Positions 344 through 47,564 of a stretch of DNA of 64,000 nucleotides are shown in pieces. The translations under genes were made by a program, and so were the position numbers. The stretch spans positions 277 to 64,276 of the forward strand of contig CACHOW010000002.1 of the NCBI GenBank assembly GCA_902581695.1, in the 5' to 3' direction. Within the stretch, counting starts at the first letter, position 1. The number at the start of each line of letters is the position of its first letter. The DNA is from an uncultured Pelagibacteraceae bacterium. Lineage in GTDB: Bacteria > Pseudomonadota > Alphaproteobacteria > Pelagibacterales > Pelagibacteraceae. The notes beneath the pieces are model-generated. The model ran no database searches. It was not told where the DNA came from and saw only the letters and a program-made list of their open reading frames with translations.

Positions 344-2221
344 TTGGCGAGTTTAATTGGATCTTACTCATTATTTTTTGGATTAGGTTGTTCTTTGTTA
401 GTTGTGTTTTTTTCTTTAAAAGACTTAAAGAATTTAAATAATTTAGATAATAAAATTTTATCCCTTACATTTTTGCAATTTCTTTTAGTTGTTTTAAGTT
501 TTTTTGGACTGATTATTTCTTTTGTAAATTCAGATTTTAGTAATTTAACAGTATTTAATCATTCCCACACTACAAAACCATTATTCTATAAAATTTCTGG
601 TACATGGGGAAACCATGAGGGAAGTTTGTTACTTTGGTTGTTAGTATTAACTTTATTTATATTTTTATTTCTAATCAGATCTAAAAAAGAACCTAAGAAA
701 TATAGAATTTTAACTATATTGTTCCAACAAATTATAATTATTGGTTTTTTTATTTTTTTAATAAAAACTTCAAATCCTTTTGATTATATTTATCCAGTGC
801 CAAAGGAAGGTCTTGGATTAAATCCAATTTTACAAGATCCTGCTTTAGCATTTCATCCCCCAATTTTATATTTAGGTTATGTTGGAACTTCTATAATTTT
901 TTCTTCAGTTCTAGCAGCTTCAGTATCGAACTATATTACAAAAGAATGGGCAAAACATATAAAACAATGGGTTATAATATCTTGGATTTTTCTTTCTTTA
1001 GGAATTTTATTAGGTTCGATATGGGCATACTATGAATTAGGATGGGGAGGATTTTGGTTTTGGGATCCAGTTGAAAATATTTCTTTAATGCCTTGGTTAG
1101 CATTAACCACCCTTTTACATTGCATATTAGTTTTAGAAAAAAAATCAATATTAACTTCTTGGGTAATTATTTTGTCTATAGCAACATTTACTTTAAGTAT
1201 GAGTGGTACTTTTTTAGTTCGCTCAGGAATCTTAAATTCAGTGCATACATTTGCGAATGATCCAGAAAGAGGTTTATTTATTTTAATATTTTTATTTACT
1301 TTAATATTTCTATCTCTCTTTGTTTTTTTCTTTTTTCATAAGACAGATAAAAAAAATACAACATCCTTTTTTTTATTGAGTAAGGAAACTTCAATATTAG
1401 TTAATAATTGGTTTATGATGTACTTTCTTGCAGTTGTTTTGATTGGTACCATCTATCCAATATTCTTAGATGTTATATCATCTCAGAAAATATCAGTTGG
1501 CCCACCATTTTATCACAAATTAATTATTCCTTTTTTAATTCCATTTCTTTTAATGATGGCGATAGGTCCAAAATTAAATTGGATTAAATCAGAGTTACAA
1601 AATAAATTTTATCTGGCTTCATTTTTTGTAATCTCATTGTTTTTGTCTTTCATGATTATAAGAATGTTAGAAATTAGTATTCTTATAAATACTGTATTAT
1701 TTGCTTCAGCTTTTTACTTATTCTTTATTACATTGAGAGATTTTTTTATTAAAGGTTTTAAAAATTTAGCTCAAAATATAGCTCATTTTGGTTTTAGTTT
1801 ATTGATACTAAGTATTTTATTTAACAACTTTCTATCAACCGAAATAATAACTAATTTAAAAGTTGGTGAAACTTATCAATCTAATAAATTAACAATAAAC
1901 TTTGAAAAAATAGAGAAAAAGAAAATGCAAAACTTTGAAGCGATTATAGGAAAATTTAACATAAAGAATGAAAGTGATTATATTGAGATATTAAAACCTG
2001 AATTAAGAATCTATAATCAACCTAATATAGTGACAAGTGAGGCAGACATTAAGACAAATTTGTTTTCGGATAAATTCATGACAATGAATTTAGTTCAAAA
2101 CCAGGAATATTTTAATATTAGATATCAGAAAAAACCTTTTATGATTTGGATTTGGTTTTCGGTATTAATAATTAGTTTTGGTGGATTATTTAGTTTACTT
2201 AAAAAAAGATATGAGAGTTAA
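344..2221 (+). CDS. ccmF: Cytochrome c-type heme lyase CcmF
   Basis: WGGFWFWDPVEN (WWD domain), WGNHEGS, conserved His in FHPP, LLHC, SVHTF, IAHFG; many TM helices; TTG start. Confidence 0.96.
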   Translation: MASLIGSYSLFFGLGCSLLVVFFSLKDLKNLNNLDNKILSLTFLQFLLVVLSFFGLIISFVNSDFSNLTVFNHSHTTKPLFYKISGTWGNHEGSLLLWLLVLTLFIFLFLIRSKKEPKKYRILTILFQQIIIIGFFIFLIKTSNPFDYIYPVPKEGLGLNPILQDPALAFHPPILYLGYVGTSIIFSSVLAASVSNYITKEWAKHIKQWVIISWIFLSLGILLGSIWAYYELGWGGFWFWDPVENISLMPWLALTTLLHCILVLEKKSILTSWVIILSIATFTLSMSGTFLVRSGILNSVHTFANDPERGLFILIFLFTLIFLSLFVFFFFHKTDKKNTTSFFLLSKETSILVNNWFMMYFLAVVLIGTIYPIFLDVISSQKISVGPPFYHKLIIPFLIPFLLMMAIGPKLNWIKSELQNKFYLASFFVISLFLSFMIIRMLEISILINTVLFASAFYLFFITLRDFFIKGFKNLAQNIAHFGFSLLILSILFNNFLSTEIITNLKVGETYQSNKLTINFEKIEKKKMQNFEAIIGKFNIKNESDYIEILKPELRIYNQPNIVTSEADIKTNLFSDKFMTMNLVQNQEYFNIRYQKKPFMIWIWFSVLIISFGGLFSLLKKRYES

Positions 2222-30129: not shown

Positions 30130-31137
30130 ATGAATATAGCAATTGTAGGAGCAACAGGAAATGTTGGCAGAAAAACTTTAGAGGTTCTTGAAAAAAAAGG
30201 ACTAAAAATTGATAATCTATATCTAGTCGCCTCATCAAAAAGTGTGGGGATAAAGATTAAATTTAAAGGGAAAGAATATGAAGTTTGTGATTTAGAAAAT
30301 TTTGATTTTTCGAAAGCGAAAATTATTTTCTTTGCAGCAGGTGGAAAAATTTCTGAAAAGTTTGCAGAGAAAGCCTCTAAGAGTTCATTTGTCATTGATA
30401 ATTCAAGCTTCTTTAGAATGAATCAAGATGTTCCATTAATTGTTCCTCAAGTAAATCCTGAGGATTTAAAGAATATTAAAAAAAATATTATAGCAAATCC
30501 TAACTGTTCTACTGCACAATTGGTAATTGCACTTAAACCTTTACATGATTTATTTGAAATCAAAAGAGTAGTTGTCTCTACTTATCAATCAGTTTCAGGA
30601 GGTGGTAAAGCACCCATGGATGAATTAATTGAACAAACTAAAATGGCATTAGGTGGAAAAAATATTGAATCCAAAAATTTTACAAAACAAATAGCATTTA
30701 ATGCTATTCCTCATATAGATACATTTTCAGACTCTGGTTATACAAAAGAAGAACTTAAAATGACAAATGAAACAAAAAAAATTCTTGGTGATAAAATAGA
30801 TTTAACAGCAACTTGTGTTAGATTACCTATATCAGTTAGTCATTCAGAGTCAGTAAATATTCAGTTTAAAAAATCTTTTTCCTTGGAAAAAGTTAAGCAA
30901 GCTCTCGATAATTTTGAAGGCTGTAAGGTAATTGATGAAAGAGTTGATGGAGGATATATAACTCCTTTAGAGGCAGAAGGTAAAGATGAAACATTTATTT
31001 CTAGAATTAGAGAAGACAAAACAATTGAAAATGGACTAAATTTATGGATTGTCTCAGATAATTTATTAAGAGGAGCGGCTTTAAACGCAGTAGAAATTGC
31101 AGAAACTTTGATTAAAAATAATTTTTATGGAAAATAA
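30130..31137 (+). CDS. asd: Aspartate-semialdehyde dehydrogenase
   Basis: GATGNVG, ANPNCST, STYQSVSG, DNLLRGAALN. Confidence 0.97.
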   Translation: MNIAIVGATGNVGRKTLEVLEKKGLKIDNLYLVASSKSVGIKIKFKGKEYEVCDLENFDFSKAKIIFFAAGGKISEKFAEKASKSSFVIDNSSFFRMNQDVPLIVPQVNPEDLKNIKKNIIANPNCSTAQLVIALKPLHDLFEIKRVVVSTYQSVSGGGKAPMDELIEQTKMALGGKNIESKNFTKQIAFNAIPHIDTFSDSGYTKEELKMTNETKKILGDKIDLTATCVRLPISVSHSESVNIQFKKSFSLEKVKQALDNFEGCKVIDERVDGGYITPLEAEGKDETFISRIREDKTIENGLNLWIVSDNLLRGAALNAVEIAETLIKNNFYGK

Positions 31138-31510
31138 GGAACCTCTATCACCCCATATACAAATTTATAGGTGGCATATTTCATCTTTAGTCTCCATCTC
31201 TCATAGAATAACTGGAATAATAAATATAATAGCGATTACCGCAATATGTTTTTGGGCCTCGCTACTTTTACTTGGAGAGAGTAAATATGAAACTATAGAT
31301 TTTTTTTTAAACTCTTTAGTGGGTAAATTTATTATTTTAGGTTTAACCTGGTCATTTTTATTTCAAATTTTAAGCGAGATCAGACATCTTATAATGGACC
31401 TTGGTTATGGTTTTGAGATTCAAACTTCAAAAATTACAGGTTTAATAGTTATTATCGGATCAATAATATTAACTATTATTTTTTATATTATAGGAAAAAA
31501 TTTTATTTAG
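31127..31510 (+). CDS. sdhC: Succinate dehydrogenase membrane subunit SdhC
   Basis: PLSPHIQIY, SISHRITG, IRHLIMD; first gene of sdhCDAB. Confidence 0.94.
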   Translation: MENKEPLSPHIQIYRWHISSLVSISHRITGIINIIAITAICFWASLLLLGESKYETIDFFLNSLVGKFIILGLTWSFLFQILSEIRHLIMDLGYGFEIQTSKITGLIVIIGSIILTIIFYIIGKNFI

Positions 31511-31834
31511 ATGATTATAGCTACCAAAAAATGGATTTTTTTAAAGTTTAGTGGAGCTATATTAGTTCCATTAATGATTTGGTTTATTTTGAACTTAATT
31601 GCAATTTATGATCAAGGATATAATGAGGTAATGATTTTTTTTACAAATTCATTGTCTAAATTTTTATTTAGTATTTTCATTATAAATGCATACTTTTTCT
31701 CAGCATTGAGTATAAGTGAGGTTTTTGAGGATTATATAAAAAACAATAAAATCAAAAATGTCGCAAATAGGCTATTATTCGCTTCAGCAGTAGCAATTCC
31801 AATAATTACAATTATATTAATAACTAATTTATGA
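31511..31834 (+). CDS. sdhD: Succinate dehydrogenase membrane anchor SdhD (no histidine)
   Basis: 3 TM helices, EVFEDY motif, position between sdhC and sdhA. Confidence 0.88.
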
Positions 31835-33606
31835 GTGCTTATAAAATAATAGATCATGAGTATGATGTTGTAGTGTTAGGAGCAGGTGGTTCAGGACTTA
31901 GAGCTGCTGTAGGCTTAAGTGAAGCTGGATTAAAAACTGCGTGTATTTCTAAAGTGTTTCCTACAAGAAGTCATACTTCTGCTGCCCAGGGTGGTATTTC
32001 CGCTTCTCTTGGCAACATGGGAGAAGATGATTGGCGTTGGCACATGTACGATACTGTTAAAGGAGCGGATTGGTTGGGTGATCAAGATAGTATTGAATAT
32101 CTGTGTAAGGAAGCACCAAAAGCAGTTATAGAATTAGAAAAATATGGAGTTCCTTTTAGTAGAACAGAGGATGGAAAAATTTATCAAAGACCATTTGGGG
32201 GTATGACAAAGAATTATGGTAATGGCATCGTGCAAAGAACATGCGCGGCTGCTGATAGAACGGGTCATGCAATTTTACATACTTTATATGGACAAGCTTT
32301 AAAACATAAAACAGAATTTTTTATAGAATATTTTGCACTTGATTTAATAATGAAAGATGGTGAGTGTAAGGGTTTAGTGGCATGGAATTTAAATGATGGA
32401 ACTATTCATAGATTTAGAGCTCACAGTGTAATAATTGCAACAGGAGGTTATGGTAAAGTTTATTACTCAGCAACCTCAGCTCATACTTGTACGGGGGATG
32501 GTAATGCAATGGTTTTAAGAGCTGGCTTGCCATTGCAAGATATGGAATTTGTTCAGTTTCATCCAACAGGAATATATGGTCATGGTACTTTAATTACAGA
32601 GGGTGCAAGAGGCGAAGGAGGTTACCTTACAAATTCTAAAGGGGAAAGATTTATGGAAAGATATGCTCCTAAAGCAAAAGACTTAGCATCAAGAGATGTT
32701 GTAAGCAGATCAATGTCAATTGAAATTAACGAAGGTAGAGGTGTTGGTAAAGATCAAGATCATGTTCATTTAAATTTAAGTCACTTAGATAAAGAAATTA
32801 TTGAAAGTAGACTTCCAGGTATAACTGATGCTGCAAGATTATTTGCAAATGTAGATGTTACTAAAGAGCCGATTCCAGTAGTTCCAACTGTTCACTACAA
32901 TATGGGAGGTATCCCTACTAATTATAAGGGCGAAGTCCTAACAGTAAATGGTTCAGAAAAAACTGTTCCTGGGTTGATGGCAATCGGTGAAGCTGCATGT
33001 GTATCAGTTCATGGTGCTAACAGATTAGGATCTAACTCTTTAATAGATTTAGTTGTTTTTGGAAGAGCTGCAGCAAAAAGAGCAGCAGAGCTTATTAAAC
33101 CAGGAACTCCTCATGAAGAAATTGGAGAATCAGAAACACAAAAATGTCTTGATAGATTTGATAAAATAAGAAATGCTGATGGAGATACTGGAACAGCAGA
33201 ACTAAGATTATCAATGCAAAAGACAATGCAATCAAAATGTGCAGTTTTTAGAACAGAAAAAACCCTTAAAGAGGGAGTTGAAGAAATAAAAAAAACTTAC
33301 GATGGGCTTGATTCTTTATCTGTTAAGGATAAATCATTAGTATTTAACACAGATTTGGTTGAAACTTTAGAATTTGATAATTTAATTAGACAAGCAGTTG
33401 CAACAGTAGACTCTGCTTACCATAGAAAAGAGAGTAGAGGAGCTCATGCAAGAGAAGATTTTCCAAAAAGAGATGACGAAAAATTTATGCAACATACTCT
33501 GGCTTGGTGTAATGGTAAAGAGACAAAAATAAGCTATAGAGAAGTTCATAAAACTACATTGACTAACGAAGTTCAGTATTTTCCTCCCCAGGAAAGAGTC
33601 TATTAA
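31831..33606 (+). CDS. sdhA: Succinate dehydrogenase flavoprotein
   Basis: [16 protein letters not shown] (FAD His), [22 protein letters not shown]. Confidence 0.98.
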
Positions 33607-34385
33607 TGGTACAAATAAATTTACCTGAAAACTCAAAAGTAAAAAAAGGTAATTATTTCAAAGACAAAACTGGCTCAAAAAATTTAAGAAAAGTAAACAT
33701 ATATAGATGGGATCCTTCCACTGAAGAAAATCCTAGAATTGATACTTATGAAGTTGATATGGATAATTGTCCTTCAAAAGTCCTGGATATATTAAATAAG
33801 ATTAAAAATGAGTTGGATCCAACAATAGCTTATAGAAGATCTTGTGCTCATGGTGTTTGCGGTTCTTGTGCAATGAATATGGGTGGTAAAAACGGTTTAG
33901 CATGCACTACTCCCCATGCTGATATTGATGGTGATATAGACATTTATCCTTTACCCCATTTGAAAGTAAAAAGAGATTTAATTGGAGATTTAGATGGATT
34001 GTATAAACAATACCAATCTATAGAACCGTGGTTAAAATCAAATTCTAAATCTGAGACAACCGAAATCATTCAATCAAAAGAAGACAGAAAAAAATTAGAT
34101 GGAGCTTATGAATGTATTATGTGCGCATGTTGCTCGACCTCATGTCCTAGTTATTGGTGGAATGGAGATAAGTATCTAGGTCCTGCAGTTCTATTACAAG
34201 CTTATAGGTGGATTGTAGATAGCAGGGATGAAGAAAGAGAAGCTAGATTAAAAAAGGTTGCAGATGAGTTAAAGCTATACAGATGTCATACTATTTTAAA
34301 TTGTACTAGTGCATGCCCAAAAGGTTTAAATCCTGCAAAAGCAATCGCAGAAATAAAAAAAATGCTAGCTACAGCTAGTCTTTAA
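33606..34385 (+). CDS. sdhB: Succinate dehydrogenase iron-sulfur subunit
   Basis: [33 protein letters not shown]. Confidence 0.98.
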
Positions 34386-41657: not shown

Positions 41658-42623
41658 ATGAAAAAAAAAATTTCTTTAATTGGCGCAGGACAAATAGGTG
41701 GAACGCTTGCACATTTAATAGGAACAAAAGAATTAGTAGATGAAGTAGTCTTGTTTGATGTAGCTAGCGGAATAGCTAAAGGTAAAGCTCTAGATATTGC
41801 ACAATCTTCATCGGTAGATGGTTTTAATGTAAGCTTTAAAGGCACCGATGATTATAAGGATATAAAAGACTCCAATGTAATTATTATTACAGCTGGAGTT
41901 CCAAGAAAACCTGGAATGAGTAGAGATGATCTGCTTGGTATTAATTTAAAAATTATTAAACAGGTTGCTGAAGGAATAAAACAAAATGCTCCAAACGCAT
42001 TTGTGATATGTATTACTAATCCTTTAGATGTTATGGTTATGGCTTTCCAAAAATTTTCTGGTCTACCCTCAAACAAAGTAGTTGGCATGGCTGGGATATT
42101 AGACAGTTCTAGATTTAAATTATTTTTATCATTAGAATTAAACGTTCCTGTAAAAGAAATAGATGCAATGGTCATGGGTGGTCATGGAGATACTATGGTT
42201 CCAATGCCAAGATTTACAAAAGTTTCAGGAAAACCCTTACTAGATTTAGTTAAAGAAGGAAAAATAACAAAAGAAAGATTAGAAGAAATAAATCAAAGAA
42301 CAAGAGATGGTGGTGCTGAAATTGTTAAGCACCTTGAAAAAGGTTCAGCATTTTATGCTCCTGCAGCGTCTGGTATTCAAATGGCTGAAGCATATCTAAA
42401 TGATGAAAAAAAATCATTACCTTGTGCTGTTCAATTGAATGGAGAATATGGAGTAAAAGATGTTTATGCAGGAGTTCCAGTTATAATTGGAAAAAATGGT
42501 GTTGAAAAAATAGAACAGATTGATTTAGACGAAAAAGAAAAAAAAGAATTTATACACTCCATAGAGGCAGTGAAAGCCCTCTGGGAAGCAGCATCTAAAA
42601 TAGACCCTGATCTTTCTAAATAA
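41658..42623 (+). CDS. mdh: Malate dehydrogenase (LDH-like)
   Basis: [33 protein letters not shown]. Confidence 0.97.
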
Positions 42624-42625
42624 TA

Positions 42626-43786
42626 ATGAATATACACGAGCATCAAGCTAAAAAAATATTAAAAAAATATGGAGTAGCTGTTCCAGAGGGAATTTTTGCA
42701 TTAACTGTTGATGATTTAATAGAAAAAGCAAAATCTTTAAAAACAAAAAAATATGTTTTAAAGGCACAAATACATGCAGGTGGAAGAGGCAAAGCAGGAG
42801 GAGTTAAAATTTTAGATAATTTGGAAGAATTAAAAATCGCTGCAAAGGAATTACTAGGTAAAATTCTTGTAACACACCAAACTGGCCCAGAGGGAAGAGA
42901 AGTTAAAAGATTATATGTTGAAGAGTCCTCTAATATTGTCAAAGAATTTTATTTATCATGCTTAATTGATAGATCTAGCTCAAAAATTGCATTTATATCT
43001 AGTGATCAAGGGGGCATGGATATAGAAGAAGTAGCAAAAAATGATCCACAAAAAATTGTAACAACCAAAGTCGAAATGAGTGATGAAATTTCTGAAACAG
43101 ATTGTGAAAAAATTATTAAGATCTTTAATTTAAATGATAATATTAAAAATCAAGCAATTTCCTTAATTAAATCAATTTATAAAATGTTTAAAAATACTGA
43201 TGCTAGCATGGTTGAAGTTAACCCTTTGATATTGACAAAAGACGAAAAAATTATCTGTCTTGATGCAAAAGTAAATTTTGATTCAAACGCTTTATTTAGA
43301 CATCCTGAAATTATAGAACTTAGAGACTTAAATGAAGAAGATCCAACTGAAATAGAAGCTAGCAAGCATGACCTTGCTTACATAAAGTTAGATGGAAGTA
43401 TTGGGTGTATGGTTAATGGAGCGGGCTTGGCTATGGCGACCATGGATATAATTAAATTGTATGGAAAAGAACCAGCCAATTTTTTAGATGTAGGAGGTGG
43501 CGCATCAAAGGAAAAAGTTTCAGCTGCTCTAAAGTTAATTCTTTCTGATAAGAATGTAAGAGGAATTCTTATAAATATTTTTGGTGGAATAATGAGATGT
43601 GATGTTCTTGCCCAAGGTGTTGTTGATGCTGCAAAAGAAATAAATATCAGTGTTCCTTTAGTAGTAAGACTTGCTGGAACAAATTTTAAACAAGGAAAAG
43701 AAATTTTAGATAATTCTGGTTTAAAAATAATTTCTGCAGAAAATTTAGATGATGCAGCAAAAAAGATTGTTGAAGCTATAGAGTAA
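42626..43786 (+). CDS. sucC: Succinyl-CoA synthetase beta subunit
   Basis: [42 protein letters not shown]. Confidence 0.98.
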
Positions 43787-43787
43787 T

Positions 43788-44663
43788 ATGTCAGTTTTAG
43801 TAAATAAGAATACCAAAGTTATCTGCCAAGGATTTACAGGTAAGCATGGAGAATTTCATTCTAAGCAAGCAATAGAGTATGGAACAAATTTAGTCGGTGG
43901 AGTAACACCCAAAAAAGGTGGTCAAATACATCTCGATAGACCTGTTTTCAATACAGTTGCTGAAGCAAAAGATAAGGTTGGTGCAGACGCAACAATGATT
44001 TATGTACCTGCGAAATTTGCAGCAGCAGCAATAATAGAAGCAATAGATGCATCAGTTGAATTGATAGTTTGTATTACAGAAGGTATTCCTGTTCAGGATA
44101 TGCTTAAGGTTAAGCAAAAGTTAAATGAATCAAAAAGTCGATTGATAGGACCTAATTGCCCGGGTATCATAACACCTGATGAGTGTAAAATTGGAATAAT
44201 GCCTGGAAGCATTCATAAAAGGGGAACCGTTGGAATTGTTTCACGATCTGGAACATTAACTTACGAAGCAGTAGCACAAACAACTGAAAATGGGTTAGGA
44301 CAATCAACATGTATTGGTATTGGAGGAGACCCAATAAATGGTACCAACTTTATTGATTGTTTAGATTTATTTTTAAATGATGAGGAGACTCAATCGATTT
44401 TAATGATCGGTGAAATTGGAGGAACAGCAGAAGAAGAAGCTGCAGAATTTTTGAAAAATCATAAAATTAAAAAACCAGTTGTAGGATTTGTTGCAGGAAT
44501 TACTGCCCCTCCAGGACGAAGAATGGGACATGCAGGTGCAATTATATCTGGAGGAAAGGGTGGAGCAATAGACAAAATAAAAAAAATGGAAGAATCAGGC
44601 ATAACAATTGCTAAATCTCCATCAATAATTGGAAAAACTTTATTTAATAAACTGAATAATTGA
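43788..44663 (+). CDS. sucD: Succinyl-CoA synthetase alpha subunit
   Basis: [27 protein letters not shown] (phospho-His). Confidence 0.98.
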
Positions 44664-44687
44664 AAAATTCGTATCTAGGTTTATATT
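44660..44687 (+). promoter_or_regulatory. Possible internal sigma70 promoter for sucA
   Basis: TTGAAA (44660-44665), 16 nt spacer, TATATT (44682-44687), 9 nt before the sucA ATG. Confidence 0.35.
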
Positions 44688-44696
44688 AAATAATAA

Positions 44697-47564
44697 ATGT
44701 CATCATCTAAAAATCTCGAATATGAAAAAACTGCATTTCTAAGTAAATCAAATAGTGCTTTTATTGAAGAAATGTATATGAAATTTGTGAATGACGATCC
44801 AACCCTGCCTGAAAGCTGGAAAAAGTATTTTAATGATATTGGTGAAGAATTTGATGTGATCGTTAATGAGATTAATGGGCCATCATGGAGCCCATCTAAA
44901 AAATTTTCTATAAATAAAAATCAAAAAAGTAATAACGGTCAACTAAACGAACTAGAATTAATGCAGTCGAATGCAAATTCAATAAAAGCTGTTGCAATGA
45001 TTAGGTCATATAGACAAAGGGGACATTTGATTGCTAAACTAGATCCCCTAGGACTACTTAAAGCAGAATATTTAGAAGAACTCCATCCTGATTCTTATGG
45101 TTTTAAAAAGGAAGATTATAAAAAAAAAATTTTCTTAGATGGTGTTATAAATAAAAAACATTCAAATATTTCTGAAATACTAAATTTTTTAAAAGAAAAA
45201 TATTGTGGCTCATTAGGCTATGAATATATGCATATTTCGAATCCAACTGAAAGAAAATGGTTTAGAGATAGAGTTGAAAAAACAGATGATTTTAAATTTA
45301 CTCAGAATGGAAAAGAGGCGATTCTAAATAAATTAATTCAAGCAGAGGGTTTTGAAAAATTTTTACATACCAAATATGTTGGCACTAAAAGATTTGGACT
45401 AGATGGAGGTGAAAGTTTAATTCCAGCACTTGAACAAATAATCAAAATAGGTGGTCAATCAAAAATAAAAGAAGTTAAAATTGGAATGTCCCATAGAGGT
45501 AGACTTAATGTATTAGCAAATGTTCTGCAAAAATCTTATAAAAGAATTTTTAACGAATTTGCAGGTGAGATTAGTTCAAAGTCAGAAGATGATACAGGAG
45601 ATGTTAAATACCATTTAGGAGCTTCGTCCAATAGGGAATTTGATGGAAACTCTGTTCATGTTAGTTTAACTGATAATCCATCACATTTAGAAGCAGTTAA
45701 TCCTGTTGTTCTTGGACAAACTAGAGCCAAACAATATTTTCATAAAGACAAAGAGAGAAAAAAAGTAATTCCAATCTTAATTCATGGAGATGCAGCTTTT
45801 GCTGGACAAGGAGTAGTGGCGGAATGTTTTGCAATGTCTGGTCTTCCTGGCCATAACACTGGAGGAACAATACATATTATTGTTAATAATCAAATAGGTT
45901 TTACGACAAGTCCTCGGTTTGCAAGATCCTCTCCATACCCATCTGATATCGCAAAAATGGTTGAAGCACCAATTATTCATGTAAATGGCGATGATCCAGA
46001 AGCAGTAGTTTATGCTGCAAGAGTAGCAACAGATTTTAGACTAAAGTTTAATAGAGATGTAGTGATAGATTTAATTTGTTATAGAAGATTTGGGCACAAT
46101 GAAGGAGATGAACCTTCATTTACCCAACCACTCATGTACAAAAAAATACGTTCACACCCTTCTCCTGTTAAAGTTTATGGTGAAAAATTGATTAATGATA
46201 AATCTATTTCAAATGATCAATTAAATAATTTAGTTAAAAAATTTAAAGCTCTTTTGGATGAACAATTTAAAAATGCCAAAAATTATAAGCCAAAAATAGA
46301 GTGGTTTGAAGGTACCTGGTCAAGATACAAACCTGAAAAAGGTAAAGATAAAAGAGGAGTTACTGGTTCTGACACAAAGAAACTTAAAGAGATTTCAGAT
46401 AAGATTAATACAATTCCTAAAGAAATAAATGTTCATAAAACTATTACAAAAATTATAGATAATAGAAAATTAATGGTAGCAAACGGCAAGGGTGTAGATT
46501 GGTCTACAGCAGAAGCACTCGCCTTTGGGTCTCTTTTAGAAGAGGGCTATCCTATAAGGTTAGTAGGTCAAGATTCAGGCAGAGGAACATTTAGCCAGAG
46601 ACATTCAGTTTTAAGAAATCAATTAGATAACTCTCGCTATATACCTTTAAATAATATTTCAAAAAAACAAAAAAATTTTGAGATAGTTGATAGTTTTTTA
46701 TCAGAACTAGCTGTTTTAGGGTTTGAGTATGGTTATAGTTTAGTTGAACCAAACACACTCACAATTTGGGAGGCTCAGTTTGGTGATTTTGCAAATGGTG
46801 CTCAAGTAGTAATTGATCAATTTATTGCTTCAGGTGAAAGAAAATGGTCGAGAGCCTCTGGTTTAGTTATGCTTTTACCTCATGGTTATGAAGGTCAAGG
46901 TCCTGAACATTCATCTGCAAGATTAGAAAGATTTTTACAACTTTGTTCAAATGATAATATGCAAGTAATGAACTGCACAACTCCTGCAAATTACTTTCAT
47001 GCCCTGAGAAGGCAGATGCATAGAGATTTTAGAAAGCCTTTAATAGTTATGACGCCCAAATCATTATTAAGACATAAACACTGTGTTTCTAATTTGGATG
47101 ATTTTGATAAAAAAAACTCATATCATAGAGTTTTATGGGATCATGCTATAGATCCAAAAGTTAAGGGTTTTATTAAATTAAAGAAGCCAAAAAAAATTAA
47201 AAAAGTAATTATTTGTTCTGGAAAGATTTATTTTGATCTGTTGGAGGAAAGAGAAAAACTGAGAAAGAATGATGTAGTCTTCTACAGAATTGAACAACTT
47301 TATCCTTTCCCTGCAAAAAGTCTTGCTAATGAACTCAAACCTTATGCTAAAAATGCTAATTTTTATTGGTGTCAAGAAGAACCTAAAAACATGGGTGCAT
47401 GGTTTTCTGTTAGAGACTATATCCAATGGACATTAGATAATATTAAGGCTAATAATAATAAAATTTCTTATATTGGAAGAAGTCCTGATGCATCACCTGC
47501 AACAGGGTATCTTAAGAGGCATATGTTACAACAACAAGAAATTCTAAAGAAAGTTTTTGAATAA
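44697..47564 (+). CDS. sucA: 2-oxoglutarate dehydrogenase E1
   Basis: [26 protein letters not shown] (ThDP), [14 protein letters not shown]. Confidence 0.98.

Follow-up and report, generated by a model that had tools for sequence, protein, structure and literature searches.

Does a complex II that has lost both of the histidines holding its heme still contain heme? The question is raised by a compact sdhCDAB operon (positions 31127-34385, forward strand) in a stretch of DNA from an uncultured Pelagibacteraceae bacterium (SAR11 clade, genus Pelagibacter). The whole stretch, referred to below as the window, is 64,000 nucleotides long and corresponds to positions 277 to 64,276 of contig CACHOW010000002.1 (assembly GCA_902581695.1). 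In Escherichia coli SdhCDAB, a type C succinate:quinone reductase, one histidine from each membrane anchor, SdhC His84 and SdhD His71, ligates heme b556. The role of this heme has been debated for decades, and we know of heme-free complex II so far only in laboratory mutants, in yeast and in a few protists. The anchors encoded in the window carry Gln and Phe at the positions of the two ligands. We estimate a probability of roughly 0.78 that the operon encodes a natural and functional, yet heme-free, succinate:quinone reductase that descends from a type C ancestor and is a bacterial counterpart of the yeast enzyme. Heme-free complex II would then probably be present in the most abundant heterotroph of the ocean.

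The register of both anchors was established by several alignments. The only histidines of SdhC are found at positions 10, 17, 26 and 87, and in its stretch FLFQILSEIRH the residues Gln80 and Glu84 stand where E. coli has His84 and Gly88. A phmmer search against PDB chains matches FQILSEIRH with YHTWNGIRH of the pig enzyme and with its chicken equivalents, and thereby pairs Gln80 with the ligand His and Glu84 with the Gly after it. A MAFFT alignment that included SdhC and SdhD of E. coli MG1655 gave the same register, with Gln80 on His84 and Glu84 on Gly88, and it placed SdhD Phe63 on His71 and Ser67 on Gly75. The E. coli and window sequences align nearly without gaps, at an offset of 4 residues in SdhC and 8 in SdhD. 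The SdhD sequence contains neither His nor Cys. On its own, it retrieved no relative from the PDB chains with phmmer, but a profile of 39 SdhD sequences could be aligned to chain D of the E. coli structure (PDB 1NEK) without a single gap, which confirmed the register; the same profile did not reach yeast Sdh4 at an E-value of 0.01. An earlier sequence-only reading, in which the E. coli proteins had been aligned by eye, had put Gln80 (CAA at 31364) and a Glu at the columns of the SdhC ligand and its packing glycine, Phe63 at the ligand column of a His-free SdhD, and Leu-Lys in place of the Gln-Arg pair of SdhD helix 1. The alignments bear out each of these placements, including the numbering and the codon, and locate the last one at the columns of E. 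coli Val19 and Arg20.

We gathered sdhC and sdhD from 90 Pelagibacterales genomes and from 70 other alphaproteobacterial families, one genome per family (the 30 best-scoring and the 40 lowest-scoring of 124 genomes with a match; the unpublished genome G152 enters only this 70-family tally), and read the ligand and glycine columns from the MAFFT alignment. All 70 families have His at the ligand columns of both anchors and Gly at the Gly88 column of SdhC, and 69 of them have Gly at the Gly75 column of SdhD. In the window's genus (g1), all 51 genomes have Gln and Glu in SdhC, and in SdhD they have Phe (49 genomes) or Tyr (2 genomes) at the ligand column and Ser, Thr or Asn at the glycine column. 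With both histidines present in 70 of 70 other families and neither left in any of the 51 genomes of the genus, the double loss is not a matter of chance.

Elsewhere in the same family, the nine genomes of genera g2, g3 and g4 have the His/Gly pair in both anchors, and the g4 protein cluster includes Candidatus Pelagibacter sp. IMCC9063. The only genome of a further genus, g5 (locus L107), has His/Glu in SdhC and Phe/Thr in SdhD; its SdhD cluster has 372 metagenomic members. In the second family of the order, four genomes of g7 show His/Gly in both anchors. Three other genera of that family show His/Gly in SdhD together with Tyr/Cys (g6, 21 genomes), Tyr/Ser (g8, 4 genomes) or Asn/Asp (g9, 1 genome) in SdhC, and g6 is tied by its protein cluster to a Mediterranean single-cell genome. 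Among the best 120 metagenomic relatives of the window's SdhC, 115 could be read at these columns and all 115 have Gln with Glu, and Phe occupies the ligand column in 120 of the best 120 relatives of SdhD. A few metagenomic SdhC/SdhD relatives (P0001, P0031 and P0153) are 186-202 residues long, compared with the usual 107-127, which may result from mis-called starts or from fusions on short contigs.

Pairwise comparison within the genus gives a ratio of non-synonymous to synonymous substitution rates (dN/dS) of about 0.1 in sdhC and 0.13-0.32 in sdhD. Furthermore, several of the new residues are invariant at the protein level and variable at the codon level: in the 51 genomes Gln80 is encoded by 31 CAA and 20 CAG codons, Glu84 by 35 GAA and 16 GAG, and His17 by 24 CAT and 27 CAC. 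Because dN/dS lies at 0.1-0.3 and the residues do not vary across synonymous codons, sdhC and sdhD are under purifying selection and the replacement residues themselves are constrained.

The changes cluster at positions that contact the heme in E. coli. In E. coli, the distal heme propionate is held by SdhC His91, SdhB His207 and SdhD Arg20, the proximal one by SdhD Gln78 and SdhC Arg31, and the pocket is lined by SdhC His30, Thr37, Phe38, Val85 and Val87 and by SdhD Val19 and Ala23 (PMC3290573). With the heme contacts taken from that paper and with the 55 columns for which conservation among heme-type sequences reaches 70% or more, the genus has changed at 7 of 10 heme-contact columns and at 7 of the 45 others (one-sided Fisher p = 0.0013), a comparison that is descriptive as the genus is essentially one evolutionary event and one of the seven changes (Thr37 column) is common to heme-type SAR11. 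The unchanged contact positions are His30, Arg31 and His91, which are retained because they are also part of the quinone-site network. Pocket positions corresponding to E. coli Val19, Arg20, Ala23 and Val87 have changed as well.

The quinone site itself is preserved, as had been read from the window alone. The counterparts of E. coli SdhC Ser27 and Arg31, SdhD Asp82 and Tyr83, and SdhB Trp164 and His207 are all in place: SdhC Ser23 and Arg27 and SdhD Asp74 and Tyr75 are present in 51 of 51 genomes of the genus, as is SdhC Ile24, while SdhC His26 is present in 50 of 51, and the SdhB motifs SYWWN and CHT are found in the window.

With respect to its family, the enzyme has the four-subunit make-up of a type C reductase according to its Pfam matches (a flavoprotein, an iron-sulfur protein and two three-helix anchors), and both anchors exceed the curated equivalog cut-offs of TIGR02970 and TIGR02968, which places them in the type C family. 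What they lack is the axial histidine that each type C anchor contributes. Two three-helix anchors without heme ligands are also a property of the type D fumarate reductase FrdABCD of E. coli, but in sister SAR11 genera the orthologs of the window's anchors are SdhC and SdhD of the heme type. The FrdC/FrdD family profile PF02313 matched SdhC only, at 23.2 bits and thus below its cut-off of 25, and the best match was PF01127. The anchors are therefore neither FrdC nor FrdD, and their orthology rules out that a type D enzyme was acquired; the heme-free state appears to have arisen in place.

We favor a heme-free enzyme because both ligands and both packing glycines have been replaced, the replacements are fixed in the genus and clustered at heme contacts, and the quinone site is untouched. 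The operon would then encode a working succinate:ubiquinone oxidoreductase derived from the one-heme (type C) enzyme of Alphaproteobacteria, in which the four-helix bundle of SdhC and SdhD no longer binds heme b. Electrons would travel from the flavin adenine dinucleotide through the 2Fe-2S, 4Fe-4S and 3Fe-4S clusters and from there directly to ubiquinone, bound in an unchanged site made of the SdhB Trp and His, SdhC Ser23 and Arg27, and SdhD Asp74 and Tyr75. The old heme pocket would be closed by bulkier or polar residues, namely Gln80, Ser83, Glu84 and Ala36 of SdhC and Phe63, Ser64, Ser67, Leu11, Lys12 and Ser15 (Gly15 in this window) of SdhD, and these may replace the cross-linking that the propionate salt bridges and the His-Fe-His bond once provided. 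The sequences themselves show which residues are present, how they are distributed, that they are under selection and where they lie; that heme is absent, that the new residues have a packing role and that the change was adaptive, for instance as iron or heme economy, are what we infer from these patterns.

A precedent for such a state is available. Yeast complex II is heme-free according to cryo-electron microscopy and spectroscopy (PMC12508127, PMC13066397). In its Sdh4 subunit, Tyr108 replaces the ligand His and is hydrogen-bonded to the retained His156 of Sdh3, and Glu112 replaces a Gly; together, Tyr108 and Glu112 take over the cross-linking and salt-bridge role of the heme, and the core is filled by extra hydrophobic residues and a phospholipid (PMC13066397, PMC12508127). 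The window enzyme resembles it in its type C descent, in the SdhC/SdhD fold family, in the kept quinone site and in the presumed direct transfer from 3Fe-4S to ubiquinone. It also shows both yeast-type substitutions: an axial His has given way to an aromatic residue that would block the pocket (SdhD Phe63, or Tyr in two basal species), and the Gly one turn below a former ligand has become acidic (SdhC Glu84, 51 of 51 genomes). The two enzymes differ in that yeast has lost only the Sdh4 His (to Tyr) and kept that of Sdh3, whereas the window enzyme has lost both (to Gln and Phe), and in that the Glu is found in Sdh4 of yeast but at the pseudo-symmetric position in SdhC of the window. Furthermore, the window enzyme is bacterial, operon-encoded and fixed in a free-living genus, and the lack of heme is demonstrated in yeast, whereas here it is deduced from the genes. 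With E. coli SdhCDAB the window enzyme shares the operon order, the TIGR02970 and TIGR02968 families and the quinone-site residues, but the heme-free form of the E. coli enzyme is a laboratory mutant, whereas that of the window would be natural and accompanied by further substitutions in the pocket. That E. coli variant is described, in work cited in PMC3290573, as active and able to support growth on succinate, although less stable. The complexes II of Tetrahymena thermophila and Perkinsus marinus, which according to work cited in PMC13066397 and PMC12508127 have no membrane heme, are similar in this respect alone; they are eukaryotic, highly divergent, multi-subunit and embedded in supercomplexes. 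We found neither a report of a heme-less SAR11 complex II nor biochemical data on the SAR11 enzyme in the papers searched. Taken together, the distribution, the selection data, the clustering at contact sites and the yeast precedent lend support to the naturally heme-less reductase that had been proposed from the window sequence.

Several points weigh against this conclusion. The absence of heme from the SAR11 enzymes is a prediction from sequence. Loss of ligands is by itself no proof of heme loss, because E. coli mutants lacking a single axial ligand can retain the heme, to go by the title of Maklashina 2001 as cited in PMC13066397. Heme b could still be bound in a non-canonical way, either five-coordinate, or through SdhC His87, His26, His17 or a Met, or by hydrophobic contacts alone. 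SdhC does keep His26 and His87 and has gained His17; Arg27 is also kept, and the E. coli counterparts of Arg27 and His87 bind propionates (PMC3290573). The sequence-only reading had pointed to His26 and His87 as remaining potential ligands. They do remain, along with His10 and His17, but a ligand role for His26 and His87 does not hold up: they are E. coli His30 and His91, universal residues that in heme-containing enzymes sit at the propionates and the quinone site and not at the iron (PMC3290573), and because of this location they are not candidates for new ligands. His17, at the column of E. coli Pro21 beside the quinone site, lies outside the core of the bundle. Moreover, both packing glycines have been replaced, one of them by a charged Glu, the pocket positions of Val19, Arg20, Ala23 and Val87 have changed, and in yeast a single His to Tyr replacement with Gly to Glu already suffices to exclude heme (PMC13066397). 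We therefore regard retention of heme in such a form as quite improbable.

A further difficulty is one of volume. By a rough estimate, the summed side-chain gains are far smaller than a heme and seem too small to fill the cavity, so that the helices must have repacked or a lipid must have entered. The pocket could then hold another functional occupant, for instance a second quinone, the tail of a phospholipid or some other molecule, as has been proposed for E. coli fumarate reductase, in which unassigned density occupies the place of the heme (PMC10238741). A phospholipid shifts deeper in the yeast enzyme and partly replaces the contacts of the heme (PMC13066397), and the SAR11 anchors have an invariant polar cluster (SdhC Gln80, Ser83 and Glu84; SdhD Ser64, Ser67 and Ser69) that is unusual for a membrane core. 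However, this cluster is explained equally well as an inter-helix hydrogen-bond zipper, and no Cys or His is available to hold a metal center, which makes a functional occupant unlikely in our view. Decay of the anchor under AT-biased mutation and genome streamlining, with an impaired or vanishing enzyme as the result, would agree with the nature of the replacements, almost all of which are single G/C to A/T steps, and with the TIGR02968 scores of the genus, which are the lowest in our sample of the class Alphaproteobacteria. It is contradicted by the selection data, i.e. by dN/dS values of 0.1-0.3 and by replacement residues that stay invariant over 51 species despite synonymous turnover. In addition, the quinone-site and iron-sulfur motifs are intact, the genes of the operon are closely packed, with start and stop codons that overlap, and RNA-library contigs, a weak hint, cover parts of sdhC and sdhD. 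We consider decay extremely improbable. Lastly, only one sdhCD pair was found in the window's genome (an assembly of 0.81 Mb) and complete genomes of the genus give a single sdhD match; the window's own genome, 68% complete, might formally have a second anchor pair.

The ligands were lost stepwise, in the simplest history in two steps, because the sister genus g5 is an intermediate in which SdhD has been remodeled and SdhC has the Glu with its His still there. In a tree made by a quick search from a short SdhA fragment (about the first 200 residues), the two families form separate groups (Shimodaira-Hasegawa-like approximate likelihood ratio test, SH-aLRT, 100 and 94), g5 is the sister of the window's genus (SH-aLRT 86), and the two Tyr-bearing species form the basal branch of that genus. 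The ancestor shared by g5 and the genus would have remodeled SdhD, with Tyr or Phe replacing His, Ser or Thr replacing Gly, x-Lys replacing Gln-Arg and Ser replacing Ala, and would have acquired two changes in SdhC, Glu at the glycine column and Ala in place of another Gly. Later, on the branch leading to the genus, SdhC would have exchanged His for Gln, Asn for Ser and Trp for Met and gained His17; by then, the SdhC His would already have been useless. Nearly every replacement is a single G/C to A/T step (CAT-TAT-TTT, GGN-GAR, GGT-AGT, AGA-AAA), which fits the AT-biased mutation of SAR11. His17 arose on the same branch as the change of His80 to Gln, and as both His codons are used, it is under selection. 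A reciprocal swap of ligands between SdhC positions 17 and 80 was considered and is unlikely, with position 17 being at the membrane surface beside the quinone site.

The second family has taken another route. In g6, g8 and g9 (loci L011, L013 and L109-L123), the SdhC ligand alone has changed, to Tyr or Asn, the SdhD His is kept, and SdhD of g6 and g8 has gained a His where E. coli has the pocket residue Val19. This erosion of the heme site is a separate, independent event because it affected the opposite subunit, SdhC and not SdhD. With a SdhC Tyr facing the SdhD His, these enzymes are a mirror image of yeast complex II. A bolder interpretation is that the heme b site has been dismantled at least twice in SAR11, that the replacement residues do more than fill space, with the buried Glu84 taking the part of a heme propionate in the proton and electrostatic network around the quinone site and His17 possibly contributing, and that the quinone site has thereby been adaptively re-engineered into a form that is cheaper in iron and heme. 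We offer this only tentatively and regard it as doubtful.

The loss is specific to complex II and does not reflect a general loss of heme, because ferrochelatase, the bc1 cytochrome b and CcmF are still encoded, so that heme is synthesized and put to other uses; the window's genome and four complete genomes of the genus all have the first two. The ferrochelatase gene of the window's assembly (G000) lies outside the window (contig C14:15472-16423), where it is broken into two neighboring frames that overlap. In the four complete genomes it is a single open reading frame of 344-357 residues, and the split is thus a frameshift or an assembly error. The heme accounts for one of the ten iron atoms of complex II. 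An iron-sparing rationale is plausible, if quantitatively small, and such a motive has to be weighed against the presence of the heme ligands in related genera of SAR11, the IMCC9063 group among them.

If the heme-free reading is true, the commonest heterotrophic cells of the sea run the tricarboxylic acid (TCA) cycle and respiration without heme in complex II. The heme-keeping relatives, the intermediate genus and the second lineage would then constitute a natural experiment on heme function, and this series could be used to test the role of the heme in stability, in suppression of reactive oxygen species or in electron buffering. The purpose of the heme would become directly testable with natural heme-plus and heme-minus sister enzymes, such as those of the cultured IMCC9063 group and of Pelagibacter. 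A heme-free complex II would also matter, modestly, for the iron and heme quotas of cells in iron-poor oceans.

The features of the locus are collected in the table.

Table. Genes and residues of the sdhCDAB operon and other genes of the window (positions are those of the window)
Feature	Position	Strand	Details
sdhC, large membrane-anchor subunit, 127 residues	31127-31510	+	PF01127 99.7 bits; TIGR02970 122.9 bits (cut-off 52.3); PDB SdhC chains, E 1e-12
sdhD, small membrane-anchor subunit, 107 residues	31511-31834	+	TIGR02968 47.9 bits (cut-off 41.8); PF01127 29.1 bits; family profile against 1NEK chain D, E 1e-10
sdhA, flavoprotein, 591 residues	31831-33606	+	PF00890 430 bits; PF02910 156.9 bits; start overlaps sdhD stop
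sdhB, iron-sulfur subunit, 259 residues	33606-34385	+	PF13085, PF13534; cluster Cys motifs and quinone-site SYWWN and CHT present
SdhC His17, codon CAT	31175-31177	+	E. coli Pro21 column, adjoins quinone-site Trp16; His in 51/51 genus genomes, Gln in all other sampled Pelagibacterales
SdhC Ser23-Ile24-Ser25-His26-Arg27	31193-31207	+	quinone-site/propionate motif (E. coli Ser27, Ile28, His30, Arg31), kept; alignment
SdhC Gln80, codon CAA	31364-31366	+	column of E. coli ligand His84 (phmmer and MAFFT); Gln in 51/51 genus genomes, CAA and CAG both used
SdhC Glu84, codon GAG	31376-31378	+	column of Gly88, one helix turn below the ligand; Gly in 83/83 heme-type sequences, Glu in 51/51 genus genomes and g5
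SdhD Leu11-Lys12	31541-31546	+	columns of E. coli Val19 (heme pocket) and Arg20 (propionate ligand), roles from PMC3290573; Gln-Arg in other Alphaproteobacteria
SdhD Phe63, codon TTC	31697-31699	+	column of E. coli ligand His71; Phe in 49/51, Tyr in 2/51 genus genomes
SdhD Ser67, codon AGT	31709-31711	+	column of Gly75; Gly in 81/82 heme-type sequences; Ser, Thr or Asn in the genus
SdhD Asp74-Tyr75	31730-31735	+	quinone-binding pair (E. coli Asp82-Tyr83), kept; invariant in all aligned sequences
Glycine-cleavage T protein, acyl-CoA dehydrogenase, IclR regulator, aldehyde dehydrogenase		opposite strand	neighbors of the operon
2-oxoglutarate dehydrogenase E1, 955 residues	44697-47564		
CcmF	344-2221		

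The start of sdhC overlaps the 3' end of an aspartate-semialdehyde dehydrogenase gene (30130-31137) by 11 nucleotides, sdhD begins directly after the sdhC stop codon, and start and stop codons overlap where sdhD meets sdhA and where sdhA meets sdhB. Nothing within the operon makes a convincing promoter or terminator. In metatranscriptome contigs, sdhA and sdhB are well covered and sdhC and sdhD are covered in part (31349-31556 and 31651-31801; runs X1 and X2). This coverage is a weak hint, as it represents presence of the genes in those RNA libraries, short of proof of transcription, and the stretches without coverage carry no information. The neighborhood of the operon is ordinary SAR11 central metabolism. 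Further downstream lies a block of TCA-cycle genes (41658-47564), in which the three open reading frames that precede the E1 gene resemble mdh, sucC and sucD by size and position only.

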